Source of the DNA: a virus
Taxonomy: Duplodnaviria; Heunggongvirae; Uroviricota; Caudoviricetes
Length of the DNA stretch: 25,822 nucleotides
IMG/VR virus record: IMGVR_UViG_2585427774_000009
Location: 1-25,822 of that record
Strand: one strand, 5' to 3'
How positions within the stretch are numbered: position 1 is the stretch's first letter; every line of letters starts with the position of its first letter. The notes beneath the pieces were generated by a model. The model did no database searches. It saw nothing but the letters and a program-made list of their open reading frames with translations, and was not told the DNA's origin. Below, piece by piece: positions 1 to 24,403 of this stretch. The position numbers and the translations under genes were made by a program.

Positions 1-933
1 ATGGACAACGACAAAATTGATCAACACAGCGACGAAATTGAAGTTGAGAGCGAAGAAAAAGAGCGCGGCAAAAAAATAGAAATAGATGAAGACCGACTCC
101 CCTCCCGGGCGATGGCAATTCATGAGCATATCCGCCAGGATGGTGAAAAAGAGCTGGAACGCGACGCAATGGCGCTACTGTGGTCAGCCATTGCGGCGGG
201 TCTGTCGATGGGCGCTTCGTTACTGGCAAAAGGGATATTTCATGTCGAACTGGAAGGTGTGCCGGGCAGCTTCTTGCTGGAGAATCTCGGTTATACCTTT
301 GGTTTTATTATCGTCATTATGGCCCGCCAGCAATTATTTACCGAAAATACCGTGACTGCGGTACTACCCGTCATGCAAAAACCGACAATGAGCAACGTCG
401 GCTTACTTATACGGTTATGGGGCGTCGTGCTGCTGGGTAATATTCTCGGGACAGGTATTGCGGCGTGGGCATTTGAATATATGCCTATCTTCAATGAAGA
501 AACTCGCGATGCATTTGTCAAAATCGGCATGGATGTGATGAAGAACACCCCCAGCGAGATGTTTGCCAACGCGATCATTTCCGGCTGGCTGATCGCCACT
601 ATGGTTTGGATGTTTCCTGCAGCGGGTGCGGCAAAGATTGTGGTGATTATATTGATGACCTGGCTTATTGCCCTGGGTGACACCACCCATATCGTGGTCG
701 GTTCTGTTGAAATCCTCTATCTGGTGTTTAACGGTACGCTGCACTGGAGCGATTTCATCTGGCCCTTCGCACTACCTACTTTAGCGGGGAACATCTGCGG
801 CGGCACCTTTATCTTCGCGTTAATGAGTCATGCACAGATTCGTAACGACATGAGCAATAAGCGTAAAGCAGAAGCACGCCAAAAAGCAGAACGTGCGGAA
901 AACATTAAGAAAAATGATAAAAACCCGGCATAA
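1..933 (+). CDS. yfdC: Inner-membrane formate/nitrite-transporter (FNT) family protein YfdC
   Basis: 310-aa ORF beginning at window position 1 with ATG and ending TAA at 931-933; multiple hydrophobic segments; sequence recognised as E. coli YfdC; location immediately upstream of argW matches known E. coli synteny. Confidence 0.9.
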   Translation: MDNDKIDQHSDEIEVESEEKERGKKIEIDEDRLPSRAMAIHEHIRQDGEKELERDAMALLWSAIAAGLSMGASLLAKGIFHVELEGVPGSFLLENLGYTFGFIIVIMARQQLFTENTVTAVLPVMQKPTMSNVGLLIRLWGVVLLGNILGTGIAAWAFEYMPIFNEETRDAFVKIGMDVMKNTPSEMFANAIISGWLIATMVWMFPAAGAAKIVVIILMTWLIALGDTTHIVVGSVEILYLVFNGTLHWSDFIWPFALPTLAGNICGGTFIFALMSHAQIRNDMSNKRKAEARQKAERAENIKKNDKNPA

Positions 934-1008
934 ATGGCGAGGGTTTAAGCAATCGAGCGGCAGCGTACTTACCCCGCACTCCATTAGCGGGTATACTCAT
1001 GCCGCATT

Positions 1009-1083
1009 GTCCTCTTAGTTAAATGGATATAACGAGCCCCTCCTAAGGGCTAATTGCAGGTTCGATTCCTGCAGGGGACACCA
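1009..1083 (+). tRNA. argW: tRNA-Arg (argW), 75 nt including the 3' CCA
   Basis: Sequence GTCCTCTTAGTTAAATGGATATAACGAGCCCCTCCTAAGGGCTAATTGCAGGTTCGATTCCTGCAGGGGACACCA read directly; acceptor stem GTCCTCT pairs with AGGGGAC; T-arm GGTTCGATTCC present; recognised as E. coli argW, a known prophage integration site. Confidence 0.9.
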
Positions 1084-1244
1084 TTTATCAGTTCGCTCCC
1101 ATCCGTACCAGTCCGCAAAATCCCCTGAATATCAAGCCTTCCGTAGATTAACAGTTCGTAATGGTTCGCGTCAGATCGTTGACAGCCGCACTCCATGACG
1201 GGTAAAAAGTGGATAAAATAATTTTACCCACCGGATTTTTACCC

Positions 1245-2435
1245 ATGCTCACCGTTAAGCAGATTGAAGCAGCAAAGCCGAAAGAAAAACCATACCGCCT
1301 TCTCGATGGTAATGGCCTGTACCTTTATGTCCCTGTATCAGGGAAAAAGGTATGGCAGCTTCGCTACAAGATTGACGGTAAGGAAAAAATACTGACCGTA
1401 GGAAAATATCCGCTAATGACTTTGCAGGAGGCAAGGGATAAAGCATGGACCGCGAGGAAAGACATCTCGGTTGGCATCGATCCGGTAAAGGCGAAAAAGG
1501 CTTCGTCTAACAACAATTCCTTTAGTGCGATTTACAAGGAATGGTACGAGCACAAGAAGCAAGTCTGGTCAGTAGGCTATGCAACTGAACTTGCCAAAAT
1601 GTTTGATGACGACATTTTACCCATCATCGGCGGTCTTGAGATTCAGGATATTGAGCCGATGCAACTGCTGGAAGTAATCCGCAGATTTGAAAATCGCGGT
1701 GCAATGGAGCGAGCCAACAAAGCCCGCAGAAGATGCGGCGAGGTTTTCCGTTACGCTATTGTCACCGGCAGGGCTAAATATAACCCGGCACCTGACCTTG
1801 CTGACGCCATGAAGGGATACCGCAAGAAGAACTTCCCGTTTCTTCCTGCAGACCAGATCCCGGCATTCAACAAAGCACTGGCAACATTTTCAGGAAGCAT
1901 CGTATCGCTCATTGCGACCAAAGTTTTACGCTACACAGCCCTAAGAACGAAAGAGCTTCGCTCCATGCAATGGAAGAACGTCGATTTTGAAAACAGGATT
2001 ATCACTATCGACGCCAGTGTGATGAAGGGCCGCAAAATTCATGTGGTTCCTATGTCAGACCAGGTAGTTGAACTTCTCACTACGCTAAGCTCAATCACCA
2101 AACCAGTATCAGAGTTTGTTTTTGCCGGGCGCAACGATAAGAAGAAGCCAATCTGCGAGAACGCGGTATTACTTGTGATCAAACGAATCGGCTATGAGGG
2201 TCTGGAAAGCGGTCACGGATTCAGGCATGAATTCAGCACGATTATGAACGAGCACGAATGGCCTGCTGATGCTATTGAAGTGCAACTGGCACATGCCAAC
2301 GGCGGATCTGTACGTGGAATTTACAACCATGCTCAGTATCTCGATAAGCGCAGAGAAATGATGCAGTGGTGGGCGGACTGGCTTGATGAAAAGGTGGGGG
2401 AATGCCACCCATCACACCACCCTGTCATCCTGTAG
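1245..2435 (+). CDS. intS: Tyrosine recombinase, IntS/P4-family prophage integrase
   Basis: ORF track gives 1209..2435 from a GTG; the ATG at 1245 yields MLTVKQIEAAKPKEKPYRLLDGNGLYLYVP, matching the E. coli CPS-53 IntS N-terminus as I recall it; C-terminal region contains the R...H..R...Y-type catalytic segment (GHGFRHEFST...RGIYNHAQY); sits 160 bp downstream of argW. Confidence 0.88.
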   Translation: MLTVKQIEAAKPKEKPYRLLDGNGLYLYVPVSGKKVWQLRYKIDGKEKILTVGKYPLMTLQEARDKAWTARKDISVGIDPVKAKKASSNNNSFSAIYKEWYEHKKQVWSVGYATELAKMFDDDILPIIGGLEIQDIEPMQLLEVIRRFENRGAMERANKARRRCGEVFRYAIVTGRAKYNPAPDLADAMKGYRKKNFPFLPADQIPAFNKALATFSGSIVSLIATKVLRYTALRTKELRSMQWKNVDFENRIITIDASVMKGRKIHVVPMSDQVVELLTTLSSITKPVSEFVFAGRNDKKKPICENAVLLVIKRIGYEGLESGHGFRHEFSTIMNEHEWPADAIEVQLAHANGGSVRGIYNHAQYLDKRREMMQWWADWLDEKVGECHPSHHPVIL

Positions 2436-2729
2436 CGCGCTGTTGATGAAGAACGTCACGCGCCCCAGCACCTCAACTTCCTCCGCCTCCTCCCCTTCGA
2501 TCGCTTCACCATCACCAGTGATTAATGCCCTACCCATTACCCTGGCAAACTGCGTTCTGCCGCCAGATAAAATCAGCAGAACCTGATTCTGTACCAGCCT
2601 GGTGCACGGCTCGATAACGGCAAAGCCGGATGAGGTTTCCAGGATGCGAGTGTCGACGCCAACACCGCAGATTCGCTCCGGAGTTAACCGCTGCTCTACA
2701 TAGTCGCCCGCCGGTGAAGGAAAGCCCAT
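2412..2729 (-). CDS. UmuD'-like (LexA/S24-fold) protein lacking the GDSM protease core; possibly degenerate
   Basis: Starts MGFPSPAGDYVEQRL, i.e. at the position equivalent to the post-cleavage N-terminus of UmuD' (GFPSPA.DYVEQR); the segment where UmuD carries the catalytic G-D-S-M serine is replaced by unrelated sequence (TPERICGVGVDTRILETSSG); the C-terminal part loosely resembles the UmuD dimerisation region. Start codon overlaps the stop of the upstream ORF (TGATG). Confidence 0.5.
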   Translation of the reverse strand: MGFPSPAGDYVEQRLTPERICGVGVDTRILETSSGFAVIEPCTRLVQNQVLLILSGGRTQFARVMGRALITGDGEAIEGEEAEEVEVLGRVTFFINSALQDDRVV

Positions 2730-2968
2730 CAGTGCACCCTCCCCATGTTGCGGAGGATCCAGTAGCGATTATCGCTATGGTCTGTCGTCTTATCTGCGAA
2801 GTCCGGATGATAGTACTTTATCCACTCGTTGGCGTCGGCCTGGCTGAAATGCCAGTGAACCTTTGCCAGCTCCCGAACGAAGTCAGAAGACCTCAGCCAC
2901 TGGTAACCTTTGGGATTAAGCTGAATAGCAGCGTGGAAAGCCGAGTTAATGTCTGATTGGCGGGGCAT
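2729..2968 (-). CDS. Hypothetical 79-aa protein, first gene of a LexA-box-controlled operon (position analogous to impC in impCAB-type operons)
   Basis: ORF with a GAGAGG Shine-Dalgarno 5-6 nt upstream of the ATG at 2968; LexA box 21 bp further upstream; translationally coupled to the UmuD'-like ORF. No homolog recognised from memory. Confidence 0.5.
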   Translation of the reverse strand: MPRQSDINSAFHAAIQLNPKGYQWLRSSDFVRELAKVHWHFSQADANEWIKYYHPDFADKTTDHSDNRYWILRNMGRVH

Positions 2969-2988: not shown

Positions 2989-3008
2989 TACTGTGTATCC
3001 ATACAGTA
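2989..3008 (-). promoter_or_regulatory. LexA (SOS) box TACTGTGTATCCATACAGTA
   Basis: Perfect CTGT-N8-ACAG match to the E. coli LexA operator consensus TACTGT(AT)4ACAGTA, read directly at 2989-3008, just upstream of the minus-strand operon starting at 2968. Confidence 0.65.
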
Positions 3009-3270
3009 GTTTTAAAGTGAGTGCAGATCAATGCGGCGACGCCTATCAATAGCGTCCACAGTTATAGAGGAACGGCGAAAGAATAAACAGTAGGGCTGTA
3101 TTGATGAAGAACCCAGGGATCTTTAACGCTCATACTGATCATTTGTCAGGATGTGATTATCAATAAAGCCAGGATAGGATTAATCTCACACACTTAGAGA
3201 TGACCCGACAATAATCGAAACGACAAGAAAAATGTGGTCTCGGTTACAGGATTATCACCTTGGTAAAGGG

Positions 3271-3582
3271 ATGACTACCATGACAAAATATGAAGGAATA
3301 TCGGCCAGAGTTAAACAAGTTACAGTTAATGATTTTGGTAGATATTTCAATAGCATTGAAAATTACAAGAATGGCATTTTTTGCTATATATGCGGTGGTA
3401 ATGACTGGGATTTGCACAGAAGTCCTGATGATAAAGAAAGGCCCGTGATTATCACCTTTCCCATCCCCGATAAAGATGGAATGGGAGTATGGGCCTTTTA
3501 TGTGATGTGCAAAAATTGCGGCGGCATGCATTTTATCAATGCTAATAAAGTTGCTAATTGGTTGGATAACAAAGAAAAATGA
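3271..3582 (+). CDS. Hypothetical small protein with two C-x2-C motifs (putative zinc ribbon)
   Basis: ORF track gives 3232..3582; the more likely start is the ATG at 3271 or 3280 (AAAGGGA Shine-Dalgarno at 3264-3271). Contains CYICGG and CKNCGG about 38 residues apart. Visibly AT-rich coding sequence. Stop overlaps the next start (ATGA at 3579-3582). Confidence 0.55.
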   Translation: MTTMTKYEGISARVKQVTVNDFGRYFNSIENYKNGIFCYICGGNDWDLHRSPDDKERPVIITFPIPDKDGMGVWAFYVMCKNCGGMHFINANKVANWLDNKEK

Positions 3583-4073
3583 TTAACCCTTGCTATGATG
3601 AGAGCATCTTCAATGTTGAAGTAAGGGGTAAATCTAAGCTAAATAGCCACGCCGGTGGTATGATTGAAAATCATAACGGCGACACTATGTTAGTTGCTGA
3701 AACAATCACTATTGATTTTGAGGAGGAAATCGTGACTTCGCAAGAAAATCCGCATCTGAAAATTCCTCTTACTTTCAAATCGGCTATGTGGATGGGTATT
3801 GGTTTCGTTGCTGTTGCGCTAGGTGGAGCTTGGGCCATGTACACCCACTTAGACAACAAACTTGAAACCTATAGATCTGGTACTGAAGCCCGAATTGAGG
3901 CCGCAAGAGCAAGCCTTGATGGCAAGATAGATTCTCTCGGATCAGAAACACGCGCTCATTTTGAAGCGGCTAGAGTGGAATCTAAAGCAGATAATGCCAC
4001 CATAACAACTCAACTACAGACCATCTCAAATAGCCTATCCGAACTAAACGGAAAAGTTTCAAAAGACAAATAA
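3579..4073 (+). CDS. Hypothetical membrane-anchored protein with one predicted TM helix and a helical C-terminal domain
   Basis: 164-aa ORF; central hydrophobic segment MWMGIGFVAVALGGAWAMY; C-terminal Ala/Arg/Glu-rich repeated helical segments (TEARIEAARASLDGKIDSLGSETRAHFEAARVESKAD); translationally coupled to the upstream ORF; followed by a terminator hairpin. Confidence 0.6.
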   Translation: MINPCYDESIFNVEVRGKSKLNSHAGGMIENHNGDTMLVAETITIDFEEEIVTSQENPHLKIPLTFKSAMWMGIGFVAVALGGAWAMYTHLDNKLETYRSGTEARIEAARASLDGKIDSLGSETRAHFEAARVESKADNATITTQLQTISNSLSELNGKVSKDK

Positions 4074-4104
4074 CCCGGCCACCGTGCCGGGTTATTGTTC
4101 ATTT
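4073..4104 (+). terminator. Rho-independent terminator after the two-gene cassette
   Basis: Stem ACCCGGC (4073-4079) / GCCGGGT (4086-4092) with a 6-nt loop, followed by TATTGTTCATTT; read directly. Confidence 0.55.
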
Positions 4105-4223: not shown

Positions 4224-6431
4224 TTATTTTGATTCGAGATCCTCAACACGCGCTACCAAATTTTCATACTGCTCTTTCATTCGCTCATAGTTACGGCGCT
4301 GCAGCGCAGCTTCCAGAGCCAGGGCCTCCTCATAACGAATGCCATAGCGGGATCCGGCTGGGGTTTCCAGAACCTGGCTGTAAGTTGGCTCTGCAGGTTC
4401 GGTATATTCCTCAATTACCTCAGTCGGCACCTGCTCGGTATACTCCTCCTCGACATCTTCAAGCTCTGCCTCATAAACAAAAAGCTGTTTGCCTGCCTCG
4501 TCAAGACGCGGAGAACCATCCTCGTTAAAGACAAATACCTGGATAAGCTTAGGTGTCTGATACTCTTCCTGAACTACCCTCTTGATGCGTTCTCCATCTT
4601 CCGCTTCTTCATCCACAAGAATTTCGCGCGTGGCTGTCATCATCACAGGTCGTTTTACTGTACGGGTTTTTGTCACTTCCATCATGCGGCTGACAGTGCG
4701 GGTTTTTGTTACTCGCTCCCCCTCATTGGTCCGCACTGAAATATATTGGTCTTCCCATTCGTCGTAACAGAGGAGCCCGAGACCGAAGCCATCAATGCCA
4801 TGCGATGCAAACACCTCCTCCACGCGCTGCGCAATAAGGCCGAAGTGCCAGCGCGCACCGTCTTCGCCTTTTTGCGCAACCGCATCATCAAACTTAAACC
4901 GCGTGCGCCAGCTGACTTCCTCCCAGGCATCGAGGACCACATCAGGGATCGCTTCCTTAATTGGCTTGTGATTGTCATCGGAGGTGTTAATCGCACCAGT
5001 ACCAAAATAGGCAGTACGTCCTCGATATGAGGCTGAGCCATAATCGAACTGGTTATCGGCGCTCGGGCGCTGGGTGCAGTTATAGGTGACAATCCCGGCT
5101 TTTATCTCATAGTTACCTTGCCCATCTGTTGCACTACCACCGCTAACCACTACGCGAGCGTCAAAAGCAGAGCCAGCCCCACTGGACCGGTATATTGTTT
5201 GCACCGTGCTTGCAATAGTTGGAGACCCTACTGACGTAAACGCCCCTGAGTCTTCTAATTGCAAAGATTTGGTGCTGAGCTTAACCAGGTTGTGGAAAAT
5301 GATGTGGTTCACTTCAACCAACGAACCGAGGGAAAGGACGCGGTCTATTTTTGGGCAGTCGACGGAAAGTACACGGCTGTCTTCACCAAATACTGCCCCG
5401 CCATTCTGCGGGCCAAAGGCAATACCGGTTCGCCAGGTGCAGGCGCTACCCATGTTACCGACGCTAATTGCAGCATCAATTACGTCGCCGCGTTTTGCCT
5501 TGGTGCCGCCGATTTGCAGGCCGGTTCTGATGTTTGAGCTGGCACCCTCCGGAATGCCGACGTTGAATTCAGCCCCCGTGACATTGAGCGTATACATAGC
5601 CCCTGGGGTAAGCGTTCCGTAGAAATTACCACCAAAATAAGCCCCCTTAGCGCCAGCAAGCGATACTCCACCGTCTCCAGTTGAGGAGGTCGCAAAGCCG
5701 GTGACGCCTACATAGTTTCTGTCAGTATTTGTTGCATCAGTCTGACCAAGCTGCTCAAGGATGAATTCAGCAGCGTGGCGGCCGCCTTTACATCCCGCCC
5801 CCCCGAATTTGTGATTCAAGAGGAATCCGTCAACCTTTGTTCCGGGAACCATGTCATCAACAGCATTGAAACGGTCATCGTCAATCCTGATATAATTGAA
5901 CTTGGCCGTGTTGACAGTGAGCCCGCTCCCGGTAATCGGCTCCGCAAGATGAACCCCGATCCCTCGGGTAATATCATCTCCGAATTTCTCTCCTGGCCGC
6001 CCCTGCAGAATTGAAAACTTATCCAGTCCTCGGCTCATTACCCCAGGACCTACTAATGCAGCGCCGCCCAGCGCAGCTAATTCAGCCCTTAACTGGTCTG
6101 GAGCATATTTCAGAACATCAGCAAAATAGAATTGTTGGGTGCCGTATGAATCGCGAATCTCCATGCTGTAATTTTGCACGGTGACGAATTTAACAATCTG
6201 ACCGTTATAAACGGGGAATCCGCCAGCATTTATTCGCAATGGCTGAGGTACTGGAACATGGGTCCCATCTTCATTCTCAATATAAACCTGAATTTGGTTA
6301 GCAGGATTCGTAGGATCTGTATCCACTAGCCCAATAAAGATTTCTCCATTGGCAACAGCCTTAAATGCACGAGCCATAGTAAATGGCTGGCTAGGCATGG
6401 CGATAAGAACATTCGCGGTAATATCTGACAT
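4224..6431 (-). CDS. Tailspike protein: P22-like head-binding N-domain, glycine-rich receptor-binding/depolymerase domain, C-terminal S74-type intramolecular chaperone domain
   Basis: 735-aa ORF; N-terminal about 110 aa (MSDITANV...FKAVANG...[19 protein letters not shown]...LKY.PDQ) matches the P22 gp9 head-binding domain from memory; central Gly/Thr-rich region typical of beta-helix spikes; C-terminal part has a Ser-(x4)-Lys motif (TSDDNHK) and WHFGLIAQ resembling endosialidase-type autoproteolytic chaperone domains; last gene of the late operon as in P22. Confidence 0.85.
4657..4712 (-). repeat. Imperfect 36-bp tandem duplication inside the tailspike C-terminal domain
   Basis: ACTGTACGGGTTTTTGTCAC (4657-4676) and ACAGTGCGGGTTTTTGTTAC (4693-4712) on the plus strand, encoding the duplicated peptide VTKTRTV in [22 protein letters not shown]. 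Confidence 0.5.
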
Positions 6432-6487
6432 TTAATTTGCTCCAGATACAAGGAATCGCCGCAGCATGGCTACGGTGAATTTTGGGC

Positions 6488-6512
6488 ATAAAAAAACCCA
6501 GCCGAAGCTGGG
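6488..6512 (-). terminator. Rho-independent terminator between ant and the tailspike gene
   Basis: Minus-strand RNA would read CCCAGC-UUCG-GCUGGG followed by UUUUUUU (plus-strand A-run 6490-6496, stem 6497-6502/6507-6512); read directly. Confidence 0.6.
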
Positions 6513-6531
6513 TCGTTGCGTTGGTTATCTG

Positions 6532-7434
6532 TCAGTAGTTATGTACTGAAGGAGGTAATTCTTTATTCTTAAGTCTCATCCATGCGGAAAGATTCGTTGG
6601 TCCGTCTGGCTCATTGATATCAACATCTCGTGAGTGATTGATTAAAACGTCTCTCGCTATATCGATAATACGGGAGAACTCATAACCGCAGTCATGACAT
6701 CTGCCGGAATAGTTCGATTGAATTTGTTTCAGCGCCGGATACAGTTCGCGGAATAATGCCTGTGAGCGGTTGGCATAATCCCATAACCATACAAGACTGT
6801 TTGCTTCTTTTGCAGAAAGCTCGTTGGTTTTCTTATCTTGTTTGCCGATAAACTCGCCTTCAAGCACTACCCTGTGGATGTACTCTACTGCTTGCGGTAT
6901 CTGAGATGCATCAAGCTCTTCAATACTTTCCACGTTGAAACGCTGATGAATCATTGCATAAGCTTCTGGGTACATTAGATGCTTTTTGCTGACTAGCATA
7001 TTTACAGCATCACGAAGCGGAGTCCTGTCATCAACAGATGTTTTCTTACGTGCATTTTCTGCCTTTCCCTTCGTCCAGTAGTCATGCAGCACGCTAAAGC
7101 ATTCCTCCTGGTACTGAATCAGTTTATCACGGATGTCAGCACGAACTTTCTCAGGGTTGATGCTGAACAGCCATCCATTTAACTTCTTCAAAGGAAGGCA
7201 GAGTAGCTTACGAAGCTTCCCATCAGCGGCAACCATGTTCATATGAACACAGTTGAATTTGCTAATCTGCTTCATGAGTTTTGTTTGCTGCGTTGACCAG
7301 CTCATTCCAAGGTTTTCAACGATTGGCTTCATCGCAACATATGCAACTCCGGCAGCCATGGCGGTGATAATTTGCTGACCGTTGAATGGTACGTAAGAGG
7401 TGTTCACTGCTTCTAAAATTGCTATACTATTCAT
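6532..7434 (-). CDS. ant: Antirepressor Ant (P22 immI)
   Basis: ORF track gives a 322-aa ORF; the internal start [21 protein letters not shown] matches the P22 Ant N-terminus from memory and gives 300 aa, with a GGAGA Shine-Dalgarno upstream; position downstream of arc. Confidence 0.85.
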
Positions 7435-7502
7435 GTTGGTTTTTCTCCACGGATTTACTGACAACCGAAGCCCTGACTGTTCCCGCAGTTGGGGCTTCAA
7501 CT
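7435..7502 (+). ncRNA. sar: Possible sar-type antisense RNA region (arc-ant intergenic, antisense to the ant ribosome-binding site)
   Basis: Established P22 biology: a small antisense RNA is transcribed opposite to ant across its translation-initiation region. Here the 68-bp arc-ant spacer contains a GAAGCCC...GGGCTTC hairpin. Ends not determined; placed by analogy only. Confidence 0.3.
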
Positions 7503-7664
7503 TTACGCGCCAATGCGCCCTTCCTTCTTAAAGCTTTCCATTACTCTCTGATAAATCTCAGAGTTAACAGACCGACCATTCTCTTCCGCCACCTTGCGGA
7601 CCAAATCCAATACTTCTTTAGGCCACCGCAAATTGAACTGCGGCATCTTGCTCATTCCTTTCAT
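7503..7664 (-). CDS. arc: Arc repressor (ribbon-helix-helix)
   Basis: Internal start of the 74-aa track ORF gives [53 protein letters not shown] (53 aa), which matches P22 Arc as I recall it (one conservative difference possible). Confidence 0.9.
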
Positions 7665-7678
7665 ATTCACCTCACAAT

Positions 7679-7699
7679 ATAGGTCCACCGTGGACCTAT
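7679..7699. promoter_or_regulatory. Mnt operator (Omnt), perfect 21-bp palindrome ATAGGTCCACCGTGGACCTAT
   Basis: Read directly; the core AGGTCCAC(C/G)GTGGACCT equals the published P22 mnt operator; lies between arc (start 7664) and mnt (start 7755), where Pant is expected. Confidence 0.75.
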
Positions 7700-7706
7700 T
7701 GAGAAT

Positions 7707-7727
7707 ATAGTAGAGTGCTTCTATCAT
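7707..7727. promoter_or_regulatory. Arc operator (Oarc)
   Basis: Plus strand reads ATAGTAGAGTGCTTCTATCAT, the reverse complement of the P22 arc operator ATGATAGAAGCACTCTACTAT as I recall it; located in the arc-mnt divergent promoter region. Confidence 0.7.
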
Positions 7728-7754
7728 GTCAATATACTAACTTGGAGTGATGGC

Positions 7755-8006
7755 ATGGCTAGAGATGATCCGCACTTTAACTTCCGTATGCCTATGGAAG
7801 TAAGGGAGAAATTAAAATTCAGGGCGGAGGCGAATGGGAGATCAATGAACTCCGAGTTGTTACAAATCGTCCAAGATGCTCTATCAAAACCATCGCCTGT
7901 GACTGGATATCGCGACGATGCAGAACGACTCGCTGATGAGCAGTCAGAGCTTGTTAAGAAGATGGTGTTTGATACGCTGAAGGATTTGTACAAAAAACCC
8001 ACCTGA
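7755..8006 (+). CDS. mnt: Mnt repressor (ribbon-helix-helix, maintenance of lysogeny)
   Basis: 83-aa ORF MARDDPHFNFRMPMEVREKLKFRAEANGRSMNSELLQIVQDALSKPSPVTGYRDDAERLADEQSELVKKMVFDTLKDLYKKPT, near-identical to P22 Mnt from memory; divergent from arc-ant. Confidence 0.9.
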   Translation: MARDDPHFNFRMPMEVREKLKFRAEANGRSMNSELLQIVQDALSKPSPVTGYRDDAERLADEQSELVKKMVFDTLKDLYKKPT

Positions 8007-8015
8007 CGGTGGGTT
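7992..8015. terminator. Hairpin terminator shared by convergent mnt (+) and the 355-aa gene (-)
   Basis: AAAAAA-CCCACC-TGAC-GGTGGG-TT; the minus-strand transcript would end in a U-run (plus-strand A-run 7992-7997); overlaps the mnt stop codon. Confidence 0.55.
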
Positions 8016-8019
8016 ACTG

Positions 8020-9027
8020 TTACTTGTCTGAATCATCCAGTTCGTCTGTTTTCACATCCTCAAACCTTGGATGCAGGCGATTCATTTTTGCAATAAAATC
8101 TGAATAGTCGTTAGATAGCTTCATAATCGTAACGGTTGATGACAGATGCTCTCTTAATTTTTGATATCCAATATTTGGCGTCAGCCCCTGAAACAACTTT
8201 GTACCTTTTGAGGCCTTTACGTTCTGCTTTTTAAGCTCCTCAAGGATGTTTGGTGCCAATCTCTTGTAGACGATATCATTTGTCAAAACGCCAAAATACT
8301 GAGGCCGGAAGCGGGGATTTTCCGGCGGGTATTCTAAGCCCCTTAACCTGAAAAGCTCTTCATAATAATCAGCAGGAAATGTTGTAATATAAGGTTGAAT
8401 TTCCTTTGCGACAAAGGCCTCGAGTATTTTGGCGAGTGCATCTTTTTCTCTATCTCGCTGGTAACCCGTCGCTTCATCAACAAGCGCTATTATTCCGACT
8501 TTAGCTAATGAGCGCACCAGAATTTCAGCTTTCTTGGCTGTCTCTAACTGGTTTGGCCTGGTGATAGCGCCTGCCTCTCTTGCCTTTAAATAAACATCGC
8601 AGACAAGAGGTATTATGGATGCGTCATAACCTTCCTGGACGGAGCCAGTAATCGTCTTGTATTTGACCTTATTGATCACATCCATAACATCTTGATTTAT
8701 ATATTTTTTAAGGTTTGCAGCATCCATAAAAGCGGGCATATTGATCACCCCCTCTTCTTGAGGTGCTCTACCCCCTCTTTGTGGTCGGCCAAATGCTTTA
8801 AAAACAGAAGCTTGTGATATGATACGCCGTCCATTTTCGAGAACCGCGACATCTAATTCCGCATCACCGATCTTTAACTTTCCCTCATTCGCAGATACGG
8901 GCAATAAAGCTTTTTCTTTTTTTGCGGCAACAGCCTTTCTTGAGGATTCTTTTCTTTGCTCTGCTGTCATTTTTGCCGCGCGTGCCTTACCGCCTTTGGC
9001 CTTCCCACTAACATCATCATTTTTCAT
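8020..9027 (-). CDS. Hypothetical protein with basic Lys/Ala-rich N-terminus and a C-terminal region resembling the P63C-type phage domain
   Basis: ORF track gives 8020..9087 (355 aa); the likely start is the ATG at 9027 or 9033 (MKNDDVSGKAKGGKARAAK...). The IALVDEATGYQRDREKDALAKILEAF segment resembles my recollection of P63C-domain proteins; unverified. Occupies the position where P22 carries sieA-region genes, between gp16 and mnt. Confidence 0.6.
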   Translation of the reverse strand: MKNDDVSGKAKGGKARAAKMTAEQRKESSRKAVAAKKEKALLPVSANEGKLKIGDAELDVAVLENGRRIISQASVFKAFGRPQRGGRAPQEEGVINMPAFMDAANLKKYINQDVMDVINKVKYKTITGSVQEGYDASIIPLVCDVYLKAREAGAITRPNQLETAKKAEILVRSLAKVGIIALVDEATGYQRDREKDALAKILEAFVAKEIQPYITTFPADYYEELFRLRGLEYPPENPRFRPQYFGVLTNDIVYKRLAPNILEELKKQNVKASKGTKLFQGLTPNIGYQKLREHLSSTVTIMKLSNDYSDFIAKMNRLHPRFEDVKTDELDDSDK

Positions 9028-9069
9028 GAGCATATCTCGTGTTGTGATTGATAAGTCAATCATACACAT

Positions 9070-9104
9070 GCACGTTGTAACGTGCAATATTTAAATATGC
9101 ACGT
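9070..9104. promoter_or_regulatory. Cluster of palindromic operator-like sites in a divergent promoter region
   Basis: GCACGTT-GT-AACGTGC inverted repeat (9070-9085), perfect 12-bp palindrome ATATTTAAATAT (9087-9098) and a third GCACGT copy (9099-9104); lies between the minus-strand 355-aa gene and the plus-strand 129-aa gene. Confidence 0.35.
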
Positions 9105-9186
9105 AAATTGCAAATCAGATAATGAGGAGACTTTCTCCCCCTTGCACTGACATCATGGTATCCTGCGCAAAACTAAGGAGGTTGGT

Positions 9187-9576
9187 GTGAAGCAATTTCT
9201 TACTGCTATGTTCTTATTCATATCTTTTGGGGCTACAGCAGAGTGCTGGGTCGTTGGAGATATGCGCGGAATAAGCTATTCAGAACGAAATAATTTCCAT
9301 CCGGAAGAAGATGGTTTTAGTGGAACATTCATCATTAAGACAAACGGTGAAGATGCCAGCATCACATATTCTGGGACAGATGCGGGCGGCATGGCTTACA
9401 AAGCATTGTCTAAAAACTCCATCATAGGAATCGGCGCGAATGGCGAAACTCAACGCGTTATCGACTCATGGGTAATACATCCAACTGGAACAGTTTTAAT
9501 GTCAAAAACCATTTCCGGTTATGGAAATATGGATTCAACCAAAGCTTTTGTTGGAAAAGTAAAAAGAAAATGTTAG
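9187..9576 (+). CDS. Hypothetical secreted (signal-peptide) small protein, opposite-strand moron
   Basis: GTG start preceded by a strong AAGGAGG Shine-Dalgarno with 6-nt spacing; N-terminus MKQFLTAMFLFISFGATA-E is a typical Sec signal peptide with an A-x-A cleavage site; transcribed against the late operon. Confidence 0.6.
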   Translation: MKQFLTAMFLFISFGATAECWVVGDMRGISYSERNNFHPEEDGFSGTFIIKTNGEDASITYSGTDAGGMAYKALSKNSIIGIGANGETQRVIDSWVIHPTGTVLMSKTISGYGNMDSTKAFVGKVKRKC

Positions 9577-9600
9577 CGATTGAATCCAATTTCCCATACG

Positions 9601-11442
9601 TTACTGCTGTGTTGCCTCAGTAGCAAACAGCGGTCTGATGGCATTCGCAGCGTTATTTATCGCTCTTTCATAGGCTGGTGTTCCTGCTTTGGTGTTTGCC
9701 AAACGAAGAAGCATATTCCTTGCTGCTTTGGACTCATACAAGCGCATCATTGCACCAAAACCAGCCTCAAGCCCCATTGATACGCCAAGGGTCGCAGTTG
9801 CGCCAATCGTCCTTATCCTGTTGGCTTGCGATTGCCCCGTCTGAGTTACTACATTTGCGGTGTCTGACCTTGCTGTTTGCTGTAGAACTTCATGAAGAGC
9901 ATCAAGCTCTTTCATGTGCTTTCCAGAAAAAATAGTGTTGTAAATTTCACCGCCTGACTGAGATTTCAGCTTATTAACTTCAGTGATGAACTTGGCTGGA
10001 GAGTCCCCGGCCTTTTCCGCTATTTTGCTGACGTAAGCTGCACGCATAGCATCTTTCCCCTTATCATCCAGTGCGCTCCAGATTCGTTTCACGTCAGATG
10101 GTTTTCTGCTTAATACAACGGTATTTATAAGTTCAGGACTGGCTTCACTGCTTGCCTTGTTGAGCTTGTTGGCAATGTTTTTATTAAGCACCTTATTATA
10201 AACGTTTGCATAATCGGAATTTGCTTTAAGGTATTTTGCTGCGTCTGATGCACCGAGGTTTTTAGCAACTGCGTTACGAAGGTCTTTTGACATTGCATTC
10301 TCTACCATATTGGTAGCTGCTTTTGCCTGGTTGGGGAAGACCATAGCATCTCCCTGAACATTAGATCTAAATGCTGTTCTGTGCTGACGCAAGAGATCAA
10401 ACGTAACATCCAAATCAGTTGCAGGGTTTGCTAATTCTTCACGTAGGTTACGCAAGGATGTAAGCAGGCTTTGATTGGCAGACGTCCCAAGCCGTTCCTG
10501 TCTTGCGATCGCTGTATTCAGAGCATTCATGGTATTTGTGGTATCAACTGCGGCATTACCCATTTTATTGGTGACGTCATTGATAACAGCGCCAGCGGCA
10601 TCCTTCCGCCCCCTTAACGTGGTGGTAAGAGATTTCACCACATCATCAGGGTTGTACTCACCAAAACGGTCAAAATAATTGCTTACCAGTTTACTACGCG
10701 TTGCATATTGCTCCGCTCGCTTTGAGCCTGTCCCGAGCAAAGCACCCTCGGCATCCTGAGTAAGGCCACGAGTGAAAGCATTTTTCGGCGGGATAACATC
10801 AGATGTCATTGGTGTCACGCCCATCGATTCTGATGTGGCAATTTTCTTCGCCACTTCTGGCGCAATATCACCTTTTATAGCCGTTATTCCACGCCCTATT
10901 CCCTTTGCTGCTGCGGAAAGAACACCCTGAGCGGCAAGGTTAACTCCGGCATTTTTAGCTGCATTTTGTGCGAAATCGCCTTTCTGATTTGCGGCCTCTG
11001 CCAGTGATCCAATAGCCATGCTTCCTGCCGTTCCAACTCCTGGAACTAAATACCCGCCAATTGTTTCTCCAGCTTGCGCATAAGGGTCTGTCGGTCGATC
11101 GACTGGACGATAGACATCATCCAATACTTTTGGCCCACCAAGCCCCTGACTGATTGCATTAATCAGACTTGCGCCACCCTGCAATACGTCAAATGGTATG
11201 TTTACCAGACCACGACCAGCCTGTTCTGAAATTTGCCCTGCACTTTGACCACCAGTGAGCCAATCGCCAGCTTGTTGCATTAATGATGGTTCTTCCCGTG
11301 TTGGTGCATTATTGGCCTGATTAACTGTTTGTTGCTGAACAGCCTGACCAGCAAAATACTCATCAATGGCGGTGCCAATATCTTCGGTGCTCGTACCATC
11401 AGGAAAGGTAAATGTCTTACCGTTTGCAGTTACTTTCATCAT
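9601..11442 (-). CDS. Ejection (internal/pilot) protein, P22 gp16-like
   Basis: 613-aa ORF in the P22 gene-16 position and of matching size (P22 gp16 about 609 aa); Ala/Gly/Gln-rich; start overlaps the upstream gene stop. Confidence 0.8.
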
Positions 11443-12854
11443 TCCACCGTAAATTGAATGCCTGATTTTGATGTATATGATCCAACCTGATTCCGTGGTT
11501 CTCCTGAAGGTGTCGAATCTTGTGCTGGCGCTGCGTCAGTATTCATTGACATATACCGCTTAACGGCACTCCCCAATGATTCACCTTTTTTAACATCCAA
11601 CCCCAATATCTGACCGCCATTACGCGATTGTCCAGGATTGCCATTCGCGCTCATCCACTCAGCTTTAAACTCATTAAACTGCGCGTTTCGTCGCTCAAGG
11701 TTTGCCATTGCATCAAGCCATCTTGCGACCGTCTCAGGGTTATCCATGTCAGTTGGCGCACCCTGCCGAACGATCTCAACGTCTTTATCCGTTGCTGGGC
11801 CGGGAGGTAGGAATTTAAGGACCTGACTGTTAACAAGGGCATTTTGGCGAATGCGCAAATCACGCAATGTTGTATCGCTTCCGGTAAGTTTTGCGAACAT
11901 GTTCTGTGCGTTACCGAACAAACCTGTCGTTGGTTTTTCTGCTCTGAACTGTTGAGCAAGCGCACTCATAGAATTGGCTGAGTTTGATGATGCTGTAGCA
12001 TTGTTTACAGCCGTCTCGATGCCTTTTTCCATGTTTACTGACAGCTTAGGTGCTTCGCTAATCAACTGCTGAGCCTTTTCCTGCGCTTGCTGCATCTTAA
12101 ACCCGAACTCTTGCTGATCCAGAGCCAAGCGTTGTGCTGCGATATTGTGCCCAGTCATTGCTGACTGATAGGAAAGGTTTTGCCCTCTCGCCTGAAGTGC
12201 CTCGCCAGCCTGATTGCTGCGGATTGTCTCTGCCAGCCTGCCTCGGTCAATTTCACGACCAGCCATCTTATCCTGAACAGCAAACGCCTTTTCTGGTCCA
12301 AGCGCACCGAGAGACATAGTAGTCAGCATGTGTGATAGCTGCTCTGGATTCTGAATACCTGTCTGAATCATCCAGTCAGCATTCGCACCCACACGATTTA
12401 ACCTGTCCTTGTTGTCAGTAATGAATTTACTGTAGGCTTCCGGTCCCTGAGAAAGAGCGACGTTAGCCCTCATGGCTAAATCGCCCATATCATTGCGTTG
12501 CTGATCATTAAGACCGGAAAACGCCTGTTGTGCCTGTGCAACAAACGCTGGATTTTCCTGGGCAAACTTAAATAGTCCCGATGGATCACCAGAAGCCCAT
12601 GCATCAGCGTGAACCTTATTGAACGCACTAATAGCTTTCTGTTGCTGTTCCTGATTGTAAATATCAGCAACTCCAGCCAGACCACGTAACGCGGTCAGAC
12701 CAACGTTATTTGCACCTGAGCGAGCCAGTTCATTGTTTTCGCGGATCAGACCAAGCGTTGCGTTAATGTCGCTTGCCTTTGGCGCATTCTCATTTTGCGT
12801 ACCGATGCCAGCCAGAAAACCACCAGAATTAATACCCTGCTGCCACGTAGCCAT
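11439..12854 (-). CDS. Ejection protein, P22 gp20-like
   Basis: 471-aa ORF matching P22 gp20 in size and position; 4-bp overlap with the gp16-like gene. Confidence 0.8.
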
Positions 12855-12864
12855 TGATTACCCC

Positions 12865-13569
12865 TTAATAAAGTAGTGAACCAAGCAGACCGATACCAGC
12901 ACCGATACCAGCACCCCACGGAGTTGATGAACCAATTAATTTCGCAAGTCCAGCCCCAGCAATGGCACCAGACGCACCTCCGCCAATAGCAGATTGCATT
13001 GCTGATGGTCTGTTGGCGTTTGCCGCTGCAAGAGCCGCGCTTTGCTGTGAAATCTGACTCATGTTGTTGGCATATGTTTGCCCGGCATTTGCCTGCCCCT
13101 GAAGCGCACCAAGACCAATATTTGCCAGATTCTGGTAGTTGTTCATCTGACCAGATAGCCATTGCTGACCAAGCGTTGGTGCGATTGTTGCTAACTGATT
13201 ACTGGTTGCGGTGGAACCCAATACACCTGTTGCTTCCGCTGCCGCCAGACTCTGATAGCGAGCCTGACCAGCAAGATCTTTGTACTGCTGAGAGTTGTAA
13301 TACTGGTTAAGTGCCTGACCTTGCCCTTCCAGAGACGATAAGTTCTCGAGGCTGCCGACATACTTCTCAGCCAGAGGAGTAAACGGCTTCAGGTTGTTCA
13401 TGATGGTGTTGAACTGCTGATTTTGCAGGTCTGCGGCATACTTCTGGGCTTCTGCTGCATACTTTGCGCTTTTATCAGAGCTGCCACTTTTCCCGCCTTT
13501 CCCGCCTTTTTCAGGGCAATAAGGTTCCTCGCCGCGCAGTTTTCTGCCCAGCTTAAATGCATATAACAT
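12865..13569 (-). CDS. Ejection protein, P22 gp7-like
   Basis: 234-aa ORF; N-terminus MLYAF.LGRKLRGEEP and Gly/Lys-rich stretch as in P22 gp7; C-terminal hydrophobic Gly/Ala-rich tail; syntenic position. Confidence 0.8.
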   Translation of the reverse strand: MLYAFKLGRKLRGEEPYCPEKGGKGGKSGSSDKSAKYAAEAQKYAADLQNQQFNTIMNNLKPFTPLAEKYVGSLENLSSLEGQGQALNQYYNSQQYKDLAGQARYQSLAAAEATGVLGSTATSNQLATIAPTLGQQWLSGQMNNYQNLANIGLGALQGQANAGQTYANNMSQISQQSAALAAANANRPSAMQSAIGGGASGAIAGAGLAKLIGSSTPWGAGIGAGIGLLGSLLY

Positions 13570-13571
13570 GG

Positions 13572-14027
13572 CTATCTCCCGTGATTCAGGAAGTCGATTA
13601 GTTCTTCGCGTGTAGCACTGTAAAATGTCACGTCATCCACGCCTTTGAAGTATTTCTTGATGGTTCCTACACGATTAAGGCCAATCATTGCGCAGTACAT
13701 CTGCCCGTGGCGGAATTTGCGCGCAGCGAACGATGTGACACACTGAACAGTGGTGTTAGTCAGAATGTATCGCCAGAACTCCAGTCCGATTTCCTTGCTG
13801 AATCCACGAACCTCTGGCAGGTACATGGCGTGGCAATCGAATGTAAGCGGCTGAATCTCCTGATAGTAAACAATGCCGCCGAACTGCCCGTGCACGTTCA
13901 CCTCAAAGTAACGGCATTCAGGCTTGTAGTCGTATCCATCACCGTTGTTGCTACCGGCGATAATGTCGGGGTGATTTCCCACGGCTTCTATCAGGTCGAT
14001 GTTTCGCGTTGGTTTGAATGTAATCAT
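13572..14027 (-). CDS. Virion/tail-associated protein, P22 gp14-like
   Basis: 151-aa ORF in the gp14 position between the tail needle and gp7; assignment by synteny and partial resemblance; shorter than P22 gp14 (about 170 aa). Confidence 0.65.
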   Translation of the reverse strand: MITFKPTRNIDLIEAVGNHPDIIAGSNNGDGYDYKPECRYFEVNVHGQFGGIVYYQEIQPLTFDCHAMYLPEVRGFSKEIGLEFWRYILTNTTVQCVTSFAARKFRHGQMYCAMIGLNRVGTIKKYFKGVDDVTFYSATREELIDFLNHGR

Positions 14028-14728
14028 CAGTCAATCAGCCCATGTAATCTAAGTGCCGTTTCAAGCGCCAGAATACGCTGCCGCGCCTGCTGCAAACCTG
14101 TAGCGAGAGCTGCGACTTCGGATTGCGTGTACGTAGTGCCGACAGTGTATGACTGGTTTGCGTTGAATGAGCCAAGAAGTGGCGTACCTGTGGCTGCAGT
14201 CCATCCAGTCTGCCTTGCTCCAACTACCTGAATTCCATCAACTGAATATGATGTTTTTACATCCAGCGGTGACGCAAGAGACTGAGATTCGGTTACGGTT
14301 TTCGATACGTAATCACTCTTAATGTCAGATACATCGCTTTCTATGCCATCCAGTCTTTGGTCAACAGTGACCAGATGCGCCTGAATAGCGATAACCTCAT
14401 CCAGCAAGTAATCAACATCGCTACGCAGTACGACTATCTTCCCTTCGGCGGTTGTTAACCTGACCTCAAGGAGATTTATCGCTTTTGTGTTTGCGGTGAT
14501 TCTTGCGTCATGATCTGCCAGTTCGACGTCCTGTTCATCGTTTTTTACCTGAGCATCGTAAGCGCCCTGACCAGCCTGATTTGCCTTCCCGGCAATTGCG
14601 CCAACATCAGCACCCTGATTTATGACATACAGCAGGTAAGACTGGCTGAATATATTGCGTGGCAAAATTGAAGCATCAAGGCGCGTAGCCTGAACCGCGA
14701 CAGGATTATTCAGTGATGAATCAACCAT
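14027..14728 (-). CDS. Tail needle protein, P22 gp26-like
   Basis: 233-aa ORF, same length as P22 gp26; predicted long helical region; syntenic between gp10 and gp14; overlapping start/stop with neighbours. Confidence 0.85.
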
Positions 14729-16146
14729 TACTCAATCCTTATCTGGCAACCAGATAGAGTGACAGGTGACTTCGTGATAACGCGCAATTTGAAGCCGACA
14801 TTTTTCCTGATGCGCCCTACTCGCTTCCACAAAACACGTTTGTCGTAAACGAACGGTTCATTCTGCTCAATCATCTGCTCACGCCCGTAATTGATGCCGT
14901 CAGTTGTAGCAGAGAGGAACAGGCGGTCAGCGTACTGCGCAACGCCAGTTGACGATTCAACCTCAAGGTCGAACACTCTGGCGTTATCCGCTTTGAACAA
15001 CGGAGTAAACAGCAGGTGTTCCTGTTGAAGACCATACTGACTGCTGATATCGAACTGCAATTTCCCGGTCACCGATTCCAGCTTATCTCCGCACGTTATC
15101 TGATTGCCTTCGTAAATGAAGTCGATAGCGCGGTAAACATCGTCATACAGGCCTGTTTTCAGCACACACCATTGCGGACCATTGGCGCTTGAAGATGCGT
15201 CGTACACGAGAACATGGCGCGGAAGATGGATAATCAGCAACTCATGCGCATCAAACCGCAGCGATTCCATCACGCCATCAGCCAGTTCATCAGCAGTGTA
15301 GGAGCGTAGTATTTTCTCAATGCTCGCGCTGGCGATTGGTGATACCTGACCGGAACCGATGATGTATACAGACGGCGCACCCGTTGCCGGATTGCTGATG
15401 AACGCATAAGAATCAGCGAATGGCGTTTTGCAGTAAGTCCCGGCAATGCCTTTCTGCACCATCAGTGATGGCTGTGCGACATACAAAGCAGCACCAACGG
15501 TGGTTGCGCCAGTCAGGGAGAAATATTCAATCGTCGATGAACCAAAGCAGACGATGAAGTCTCGCCATGTCCCGATACCGATGATGCCGTCCGGCTGAGA
15601 CTCGGCACGATATTGTGCGCTGTAACGGTCAGGATGCGATTCGTCTTCAAGATCAGTGATAAACCATGAATCAGTGCCGTCTTTTGACCACGCATAACGC
15701 CCGCGCAAGCGCGTAATGTCGCGAACCGAACCTAACTCATACTGCGTAAATCCACTGTCTGTAGGCCAGTTTGAGATGGTTTTAACCGTGCCATCATAGC
15801 GATACTCGACCAGTTGACCATTAACTCCTACCGCCTGAGATGTACGACCATGCGCCATTGATACACGACCACTTCCGGCGACGTCACCGACTTCGCTTTC
15901 GCCTTTGTACAGCTTGCCACCACACACGCGATAAACAGCACTCTGCGCCATGTTGTACTCGACGCCGCGAGATACACCGTTCACATCAGATCGTTTGGCA
16001 ATGCCCGGGAATGAGCGAAGATATCCGCTGCTGTTCAGGATTTCTTTGGGTGTAGCCAACATATTCACTGGCAGATAGTCGATATAGTCAGCGTTTCGAA
16101 AGTCTTTGCCGACACCTTTCATAAGCGGAAGTTGCTGAATCGGCAT
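14728..16146 (-). CDS. Tail accessory (portal-plug) protein, P22 gp10-like
   Basis: 472-aa ORF, identical in length to P22 gp10; syntenic; overlapping stop/start junctions typical of the late operon. Confidence 0.85.
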
Positions 16147-16646
16147 TATTCGCTCCCGTTATCGCAAGGTTCCTTTCGGTGGAAGTAATTCCAACCGTTC
16201 CACTTCGCCAACTGGTTACCGCTACCAACAGGCATACGGTTTGGATAACCGGACTTACATTTAGCGGCTTTTGCTCTGTCCATTGCAGACAGTTTGACGA
16301 GTCGCTCTTTCCCGTATCTGGCAGTGGTTATAAGTTTTGCTGACGCTTCCAGCGCATAATCCGGAGCAATGCGGCAGGCAAGGTTGAAAATGACGGCATT
16401 GATAGCGTTATTTGATAAACCGTGCTCATCTCCCGGATCCGGAGCGACATCTGCATCAGCGAAAATGTAGCCAACGTTGATACCTGGTGACGAATCACCG
16501 CCAAGCCATTCAGCCATCATCATTTCAAGGTCGTTGACGCCGTCTTCCATAGACTGCGGTTCGACATCGGTTAACGTGGCATTTGATGCCACACCGAGCT
16601 TACGTAATGCCGCAAGAACTAAATCACCCTTCGTTGTCAGGTTCAT
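16146..16646 (-). CDS. Tail accessory protein, P22 gp4-like
   Basis: Track ORF is 189 aa; the internal start [33 protein letters not shown] gives 166 aa and matches the P22 gp4 N-terminus and length from memory. Confidence 0.8.
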
Positions 16647-16854
16647 CTGCTGCCGCCTTAGGTTTTCGATCAGGCTTTTTACGCTGTTTTTCTTCTGGCT
16701 CCGGCTCTGCAACATCCTTCAGAAGGTCATCGGGATGTGAAAACCAACCAGCATCCAGATATTCCTGAAGCTCTTCGGCTTTCACGATTTCAAAGTCGTA
16801 GCCAACGCCTTTCCACTTCTTCATGTCGCCATGACGAAAGATCATGTGTGTCAT
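16624..16854 (-). CDS. Small hypothetical protein between the coat and gp4 genes
   Basis: Track ORF 16624..16902 (GTG start); the likely start is the ATG at 16854 ([16 protein letters not shown]...) with a GGAGA Shine-Dalgarno; acidic/Lys-rich C-terminus; Sf6-like phages carry a small gene at this position. Confidence 0.45.
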
Positions 16855-16865
16855 GCTTGTCTCCA

Positions 16866-16890
16866 GATAAAAAAGGGAGCCGAAGCTCCC
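16866..16890 (-). terminator. Rho-independent terminator/attenuator immediately after the coat gene
   Basis: Minus-strand RNA GGGAGC-UUCG-GCUCCC followed by UUUUUUAU (plus-strand 16868-16890); read directly; 9 bp downstream of the coat stop. Confidence 0.6.
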
Positions 16891-16898
16891 TCTGGTTA

Positions 16899-18194
16899 TC
16901 ACGCAGTCTGGTTAGGCAGACCAACACCAATTGCCTCTGGTCGTACAGCACATGCTGAATACCACACAGCAATACGGCACTTACCAGACAAAGTGTTGAT
17001 ATCACCCTGCGTTGCGAAGATGCCGTTAACACCAATACCAGGAATGCTGAAGGAAGACGTTTTCATGCCAGCAAACAGTTCATGGGTTACAGGGATCGGC
17101 TGAGACAGCAGGCGGATTGAGTCATCAGCCCAGAACACGTTAGCGGTGGTTGTTGCCACGTTCAGAACGTTTACCGGAGTGGTATCAGCAAGAGAGGTGT
17201 TTACGTTAGCGTAAGCCTTCTCTTCTTTTGTCAGTGACGCGTCATCCAGTGCAATCGGTTTCGGCGTGATTTCGATGTGAGTACCATCGATCACACGGGT
17301 GATTGAGAAAGTCGCATCATCAGTTAGCACGTTCTTCGCCATCTGAGACAGGAATTTCACACCAGTGAAACTGATTTTGTCGCCGCGTTTAAATCCGGTG
17401 GTGGAGGATACGGCCACCGTTGCAACACGGTTGTCGACGTTCTCTTTGTTACCATCGGTATCAAGGGCGTATGCCTGCGGCTTAAACTTCTGCGCACCAG
17501 AAACAGTTACACCAGTAGCGGTTGACTTGGTAACTGCCGGAAGTTTCGGTGAGCGAAGAATTTCATCAAAGCCAGCAATCTGACGCTGAATAGTACCGTT
17601 GCGATACGCTTCTTCAGGAACGCGCCCAAAGATGTCACCATCTACCAGGTTGCGGCCTGCTTTGCGGTAATCGTCAGGGTTCAGGAAGTAACTGATGCCC
17701 ATATCGCGGTTTAGCTCACGGGAGAACATCAGGCGCTCTGCGTCAGACACAAAATCCCAGCCAGACAGGCCAGTAGATGGACCAATTGCGCGGGTATCGT
17801 GAACAACAAGCGAGCCCATTTCAGTTGCCTGTTTGGCAATCGCTGACTCAATGTTATTCGCCAGTTTTTTGGCGGATGCCTGGATGCGGCGACGGTAAGA
17901 ACGCTCATCACGCAGGTCATCTGCACGAAGCTCGAAGAAATCGTTATCCGGATCGCCCATGTTGCATTTCACGGAGAGTTCCAGAATCCCGGTTGCGTTG
18001 CCAGTTAAATCCCAGCCAGTCTGGGTTGGCGCTTCCTGCTCAACAGGCATCCACACGGTGTTGCTTGAACGTTGCATGGATTCTGCCGGAGGGGTGTATT
18101 TTGTCACTTTGGACGCCATTGGCGTCAGGTTCTGGACGGTTTCGATGATTTCATCCAGAGCATACGTGACCAGTTGACCTTCATTTAATGCCAT
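16899..18194 (-). CDS. Major capsid (coat) protein, P22 gp5-like (HK97 fold)
   Basis: 431-aa ORF starting [16 protein letters not shown]..., matching the P22 coat protein in sequence and length (430 aa) from memory; follows the scaffold gene. Confidence 0.9.
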
Positions 18195-19105: not shown

Positions 19106-19118
19106 GGTTAACTCTCTC

Positions 19119-23250: not shown

Positions 23251-23285
23251 ATTCATCTCACTTAATTGTTATTTCAGGTTGAGCA

Positions 23286-24260: not shown

Positions 24261-24403
24261 AGCGTTTACCTTTTAGAAAGATGAGCCTGTTCGCACAGAA
24301 AAGCCGCCCCGAGATGGTCGCTACCATATACGGCAATTCTCAGGCTCAGCTTTCTGAAAGACTCGGGATTGTTACGCGCTGCGATGCGCGGTTTACTGCA
24401 GAT

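Follow-up and report, generated by a model that had tools for sequence, protein, structure and literature searches.

Probable attL end of a single P22-like prophage at argW in Escherichia coli

Known argW-integrating elements and the present locus

P22 and lambda, like the element studied here, encode a tyrosine integrase with an arm-binding domain, and the target of P22 is likewise a tRNA gene. In both phages attP is located downstream of int, the int and xis genes lie together at one end of the prophage, and int is transcribed toward att. The module that recombines at argW differs from those of P22 and lambda in that int and xis are parted by integration and an autoregulated int promoter lies inside attL (PMC2951348). 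KplE1 (CPS-53) of E. coli K-12 shares with our locus the tRNA, the 16-nt core, the orientation of int (tRNA first, same strand), and an integrase that is 99% identical. KplE1 is, however, a 10.2-kb remnant with gtr-like genes past int, whereas in our element a full P22-like late region lies past this gene.

In HK620, Sf6, and Kapi1, Lederbergvirus members that integrate at argW, attP likewise separates int from xis, variable cargo comes after int and is followed by a tailspike gene in convergent orientation, and the int gene is ~97% identical to the one described here at the nucleotide level. The records of HK620 and Sf6 place the attP core upstream of int, between int and hkaB/hkaC (TorI-type excisionase); those of Sf6 and CUS-3 have a cargo gene (oac and neuO, respectively) after int and next to it the convergent tailspike gene. 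For Kapi1, int and xis are stated to end up at opposite prophage ends after integration (PMC8787464). CUS-3, from E. coli K1 RS218, is also an argW prophage with int leftmost, cargo (neuO) before the tailspike, and a C-terminal chaperone domain. The present element differs from CUS-3 in cargo and tailspike specificity, and from HK620, Sf6, and Kapi1 in the receptor-binding part of the tailspike and in having terminase and head genes of the P22 rather than the Sf6 type. Its cargo consists of a UmuD'-like pair plus two other open reading frames (ORFs), as opposed to oac in Sf6.

The mechanism outlined here is the one established for the argW module in the literature. The IntS-type tyrosine recombinase exchanged strands in a 15/16-bp core that attP has in common with the 3'-terminal bases of argW. 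With attP between int and xis, the prophage map runs argW-attL-int-(cargo)-tailspike-late genes-lysis-early genes-xis(torI/hkaC)-attR. Transcription of int starts at PintS, a promoter of its own inside attL, and proceeds away from the tRNA; in KplE1 this promoter is repressed by IntS and TorI. What could be read directly in our analysis concerns the tRNA, the core, the insertion point, the integrity of the integrase, the synteny, and the attR sites of relatives.

The locus belongs to a 25,822-nt stretch of DNA, hereafter the window. Positions 1009 to 2435 almost certainly represent the attL end of a single P22-like prophage (Lederbergvirus; Sf6/HK620/CUS-3/Kapi1 type) in the 3' end of argW in E. 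coli. A left junction of this Sf6/HK620/CUS-3 type at argW is already known and is an ordinary arrangement, its one local peculiarity being a point mutation that abolishes the stop codon of the integrase gene. All the features of the argW recombination module that can be seen in the window were found, i.e., a core at the argW 3' end, an IntS-type int gene, and PintS in attL. The Lederbergvirus features, namely late-operon synteny, a tailspike with the P22 head-binding domain, and an immI region (mnt/arc/ant, sar RNA), were likewise all present.

The argW junction and the integrase

The sequence-only reading of the window had placed a prophage boundary at argW, with attL overlapping the 3' part of the tRNA gene, attR past the right end of the window, and an IntS-type integrase transcribed away from the tRNA and convergent with a tailspike gene about 1.8 kb away; each of these points held up. 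The left flank is a host gene, yfdC (1 to 933, plus strand; Pfam Form_Nir_trans), which carries this name in all E. coli matches. It is followed by the only tRNA gene in the window, argW, encoding tRNA-Arg(CCU) (1009 to 1083, plus strand; reported by ARAGORN with the anticodon written as CCT). The Rfam tRNA model agrees (63.4 bits), and the gene is intact and identical to K-12 argW at every base.

The att core, CTGCAGGGGACACCAT, which corresponds to the attL crossover region, occupies positions 1069 to 1084 and is the same 16-nt sequence as the published KplE1 core (PMC2951348). The 17-bp duplication described for Kapi1 spans the same bases (PMC8787464). Nucleotide identity to free phage genomes, including the attP regions of HK620 and Sf6, starts at 1069, i.e., within argW. 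In the K-12 annotation, CPS-53 begins at the base equivalent to the start of the core and the attR copy is the 15-bp pawZ. The last 15 nt of argW are supplied anew by phage DNA, so that the tRNA gene remains intact. A search with the 15-nt core CTGCAGGGGACACCA, for which ~0.05 matches are expected by chance even with two mismatches permitted, returned one copy in the window (1069 to 1083). As there is no second copy in these 25,822 nt, attR must lie outside the window.

The insertion point was examined with a synthetic empty site, a 600-nt query in which window positions 784 to 1083 were joined to the K-12 sequence beyond attR (locus L021, 11600 to 11899). Of 5426 complete E. coli genomes, 911 have this sequence in one piece (coverage, 100%; identity, 99.8%), so that everything from position 1084 onward is an insertion relative to those genomes. 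The comparison with an uninterrupted yfdC-argW locus that the sequence-only reading had proposed hence places the start of the insertion exactly after argW, after position 1083/1084. The yfdC-argW-dsdC junction is unoccupied in at least 911 of the 5426 complete genomes and non-contiguous in the others, which have either an occupied argW or another right flank. argW is a very heavily used integration site.

The segment from 1049 to 1268 (plus strand) is the equivalent of the 220-bp KplE1 attL used as a substrate for in vitro excision, in an attL x attR assay with TorI and IHF (PMC3509656). The two primers from that study, attL-KpnI and attL-SpeI, match exactly at 1049 to 1069 and 1245 to 1268, and the window and K-12 are identical at 216 of the 220 nt, with no difference in 1171 to 1268. 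PintS, placed from the published hexamers (PMC2951348), lies within attL at 1179 to 1208 on the plus strand (-35 TTGACA, 1179 to 1184; -10 TAAAAA, 1203 to 1208). It was not reported by a generic promoter scan, the -10 hexamer TAAAAA breaking that scan's rule of a T at position 6. Positions 1069 to 1268 align without gaps to 3001 to 3200 of the HK620 record (196 of 200 nt identical). The two adjacent attP repeats annotated there (3131 to 3152 and 3152 to 3177) could be moved to the window by ungapped offset, at 1199 to 1220 and 1220 to 1245.

A different 16-mer, TTGCAGGTTCGATTCC, from the argW T arm, is marked as the attL/attR core in the CUS-3 record. The window copy is at 1054 to 1069, and the same sequence occurs at 1 to 16 in CUS-3, 2692 to 2707 in HK620, 3192 to 3207 in Sf6, and 4431 to 4446 in HZDC01 (positions in the compared loci). 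In HK620, Sf6, and HZDC01 it is found upstream of xis, inside the site annotated as pI/cII in HK620 and at a distance of ~310 bp from the true core. We rejected it as the crossover site, since recombination there would set xis, not int, after argW; the CUS-3 mark implies that this record ends before xis and the real attR.

The integrase ORF runs from GTG 1209 or ATG 1245 to 2435 on the plus strand. ATG 1245, located 161 nt past the tRNA 3' end, is the start annotated in HK620, Sf6, CUS-3, and K-12 and gives a protein of 396 aa of the IntS/HK620/Sf6 type. The arm-binding (Arm-DNA-bind_3, PF13356), core-binding (Phage_int_M, PF22022), and catalytic (Phage_integrase, PF00589) domains are all full length in Pfam, as expected for a tyrosine recombinase with an arm-binding domain. 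Residues 1 to 384 are 98 to 99% identical to the integrases of K-12 (IntS, 99%), HK620, Sf6, CUS-3, and E. coli EC31; the alignment to CPS-53 IntS, Sf6, and CUS-3 suggested by the sequence-only reading thus shows a full-length enzyme. The R-K-H-R-H-Y set, R234, K261, H324, R327, H350, and Y360, is unchanged across the integrase and the five references; these residues we take to be catalytic from what is known of the integrase family. Two substitutions are private to our integrase with respect to the references, KplE1 IntS included, D150N and Q314R; like the C-terminal tail described next, they count against the main reading of the locus.

A further difference from KplE1 and the other references is the loss of the stop codon. 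In E. coli EC31, which has the same downstream DNA, int ends in GGG TAA TGC, whereas the window reads GGG GAA TGC, as seen in both DNA and protein alignments (lost stop codon, 2400 to 2402, plus strand). The T-to-G change at 2400 adds 11 residues, ECHPSHHPVIL, to give the total of 396 aa, and this tail comes after the C-terminal helix that follows Tyr360. As the read-through, and with it the overlap of int with the next ORF, depends on one base (G for T at 2400), a sequencing or assembly error might be considered. The exact 396-aa integrase is, however, found on 5 public contigs under several NCBI accessions, and a second variant of the same length on 14, among them the closed EC102 chromosome. 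The stop-loss is therefore not a sequencing error, and we give that explanation almost no credence. Three independent contigs match the window at 100% identity, but only one of them, from GCA_000704185.1, spans position 2400.

Cargo between integrase and tailspike

Between the int stop and the part of the tailspike gene for the head-binding domain lies the slot in which variable cargo is usually carried. Its first ORF (2412 to 2729, minus strand) overlaps the final 24 nt of int. In the sequence-only reading this overlap had been taken as a sign that the junction may be recombinogenic. The overlap itself and a real mosaic breakpoint were confirmed, but the former exists because of the single-base stop-loss (TAA to GAA), not because of recombination. 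The breakpoint is at about 2396 to 2411, beyond which HK620, Sf6, CUS-3, K-12, and nearly all E. coli argW prophages are no longer homologous to the window. Eight elements were compared, and the DNA past this point is of no fewer than five kinds among them, indicating that the mosaic boundary at the last int codons is real.

The overlapping ORF encodes a 105-aa protein that matches phrog_3469 over its full length (PHROG, E=2.6e-44). Its description as UmuD'-like, also from the sequence-only reading, is borne out by its ancestry, although the catalytic Ser and Lys are missing. Compared directly to UmuD, only residues 2 to 15 are alike, an N-terminal arm (GFPSPAxDYVEQR) that begins exactly at the position of the post-cleavage Gly25. 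A profile built from 36 diverse members of the 105-aa family (175 representatives at 50% identity) matches UmuD (8gmt_B) with E=1.2e-13 over UmuD residues 5 to 101. In this profile alignment the Ser-Lys catalytic dyad (UmuD Ser60 and Lys97) is absent from the 105-aa ORF: Phe36 stands at the Ser60 position, the next 12 residues are deleted, and Ala62 stands at the Lys97 position. Pfam Peptidase_S24 gave no match for the ORF or the 36 family members. The NCBIfam HumD model aligned to no more than the N-terminal 21 aa and scored 29 bits where 120 are required, and neither the UmuD nor the HumD cut-off was attained. One family member, P0226, retains a UmuD-like pro-segment with a Cys-Gly site. An AlphaFold model of the 105-aa protein was too poor to use (mean pLDDT 40.8), the underlying alignment being shallow (85 to 92% identity). 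The protein is descended from UmuD', begins at the position of Gly25, and is devoid of the catalytic dyad. It resembles UmuD' and P1 HumD (S24) in the Gly25-start arm and in profile homology over the residues given above, and differs from them in the deletion of the Ser60 loop, the replacement of Lys97 by Ala, and a partner that is a 79-aa protein, not UmuC.

This 79-aa partner (phrog_3893; 2729 to 2968, minus strand) precedes the 105-aa ORF in the same operon, its stop overlapping the start of the latter (ATGA). The two are translationally coupled and are fused as one protein in database member P0241. PDB sequences, Pfam, NCBIfam, and PADLOC (E<0.1) gave no match for the 79-aa protein. The pair is co-located in four of the compared loci (L019, L022, L024, and L025), and in two of these (L024 and L025, 5002 to 5558) it forms the outermost genes of unrelated lambdoid prophages, adjoining yciB. 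The cassette is widespread in Enterobacteriaceae prophages, and in strain 19SZHZ803Rt the slot that it fills here is taken by a true HumD-like S24 gene. The literature searched held nothing relevant on this truncated UmuD'-like family. One conceivable role, which we regard as quite unlikely, is that of a mobile prophage-end cassette in which a mimic of the UmuD' arm would bind host UmuC, UmuD, or RecA and tune or block SOS mutagenesis in lysogens. What the analysis itself shows is limited to ancestry, the loss of the catalytic dyad, conservation, and genomic position.

Two overlapping cargo ORFs follow on the plus strand (3232 to 3582 and 3579 to 4073; GC, 38%). The first encodes 116 aa (100 aa from Met17) with a CxxC...CxxC motif; the second encodes 164 aa, for which a single transmembrane helix is predicted and whose tail resembles a coiled coil. 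Neither protein had a match in Pfam, NCBIfam, or PDB sequences, PADLOC gave no match to a defense system at E<0.1, and nucleotide searches of the 5426 E. coli genomes and of 50,697 phage records found nothing that matched the DNA of the two ORFs (3232 to 4073). Both protein clusters are common to Citrobacter freundii. A bidirectional terminator-like hairpin with a perfect 11-bp stem (4069 to 4096) separates this cargo from the tailspike gene.

One prophage and its expected right end

The tailspike gene (4224 to 6431, minus strand) and int converge, their stop codons being 1788 bp apart. Its product combines the head-binding domain of P22 with an intramolecular-chaperone domain (Peptidase_S74) at the C terminus. 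Most E. coli P22-like prophages become homologous again only at 6174, within this gene. The receptor-binding part is common to EC102 and, at the protein level, to Citrobacter freundii. Beyond it, from 6532 to 25822 on the minus strand, lie a P22-like immI region and late operon with ant, arc, mnt, and the genes for ejection proteins, tail, head, terminase, and lysis. The immI, ejection, tail, head, terminase, and lysis ORFs are full length within the window and have the lengths of the HZDC01 annotation. The sar RNA, an antisense regulator of ant in P22 immI, was detected at 7435 to 7502 on the plus strand (Rfam, 95.6 bits).

Whether the integrase and this late region belong to one prophage had been left undecided in the sequence-only reading. 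In K-12 a 10-kb remnant with the same int occupies the same site, and the sequence from int to tailspike is mosaic and differs in GC content, as might be seen if a CPS-53/KplE1-like remnant had contributed attL and int, and a second, separate P22-like element alongside it the tailspike and late region. The window, however, has a single att core copy and a single integrase, and the order int-cargo-tailspike is what results when the usual circular map of HK620, Sf6, and CUS-3 is cut at attP (PMC8787464). With attP between int and xis, integration puts int beside the cargo and tailspike, and the same order is found in relatives; the arrangement in the window is thus the canonical map and no sign of a tandem.

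Two relatives bear this out. HZDC01 is 97% identical to the window over 6174 to 25822 and has the order yfdC-argW-intS-acyltransferase-tailspike ... lysis ... Q ... replication ... cI ... torI between exactly two core copies, 40,588 bp apart with none internal, attR being located 74 bp past torI. EC102 is 99.86% identical over 4284 to 15882, carries the second variant of the 396-aa integrase allele, and has the same order between its two cores, which are 36.0 kb apart; its head genes are interrupted by IS3. These single attL/attR pairs, together with the position of attP, settle the question in favor of one prophage. Both int and the late region are parts of the same element, and a composite or tandem origin is extremely improbable.

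The right end of the prophage is outside the window. The window is 100% identical to JNQI01000016.1 (GCA_000704185.1), a contig that ends ~1 kb beyond it. A TorI/HkaC-type excisionase and attR are present at the opposite prophage end in HZDC01, EC102, and K-12. Judging from HZDC01 and EC102, the attR of the window prophage itself would be ~36 to 41 kb to the right. There, ~36 to 41 kb right of position 1069, the junction is predicted to read ...CAAGTAGATGT-CTGCAGGGGACACCA-host flank, and attR and xis are expected before dsdC or the csc locus. The endolysin was also tried as a route to the right end and abandoned; its look-up returned only unrelated mosaic lambdoid prophages, the endolysin occurring in 27,688 blocks of the collection.

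A genuine junction could still belong to a defective or locked prophage, i.e., a domesticated remnant that either has an absent or disrupted early/xis end or can no longer be excised by the extended integrase. Consistent with this, the stop-loss adds 11 residues past the C-terminal helix after the catalytic Tyr360. EC102, the nearest relative by late-region identity and a carrier of the same allele, has IS3 in its head genes, which shows that prophages of this lineage may be defective. The rightward remainder of the prophage, moreover, lies beyond the window, and the identical public contig ends ~1 kb further on. Against it, all the late, lysis, and immI ORFs of the window are full length, the catalytic residues and three domains of the integrase are intact, and attL with PintS is identical at 216 of 220 nt to a functional attL. 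The extended integrase allele also persists, on at least 19 contigs and in two sequence variants. On balance we consider a defective or locked prophage unlikely, and we infer that this copy is still active.

Overall, the left boundary of the prophage is fixed to the base, which is of little importance beyond correct annotation. The stop-loss integrase allele could affect excision. The four uncharacterized cargo genes are the only part of the locus with discovery potential.
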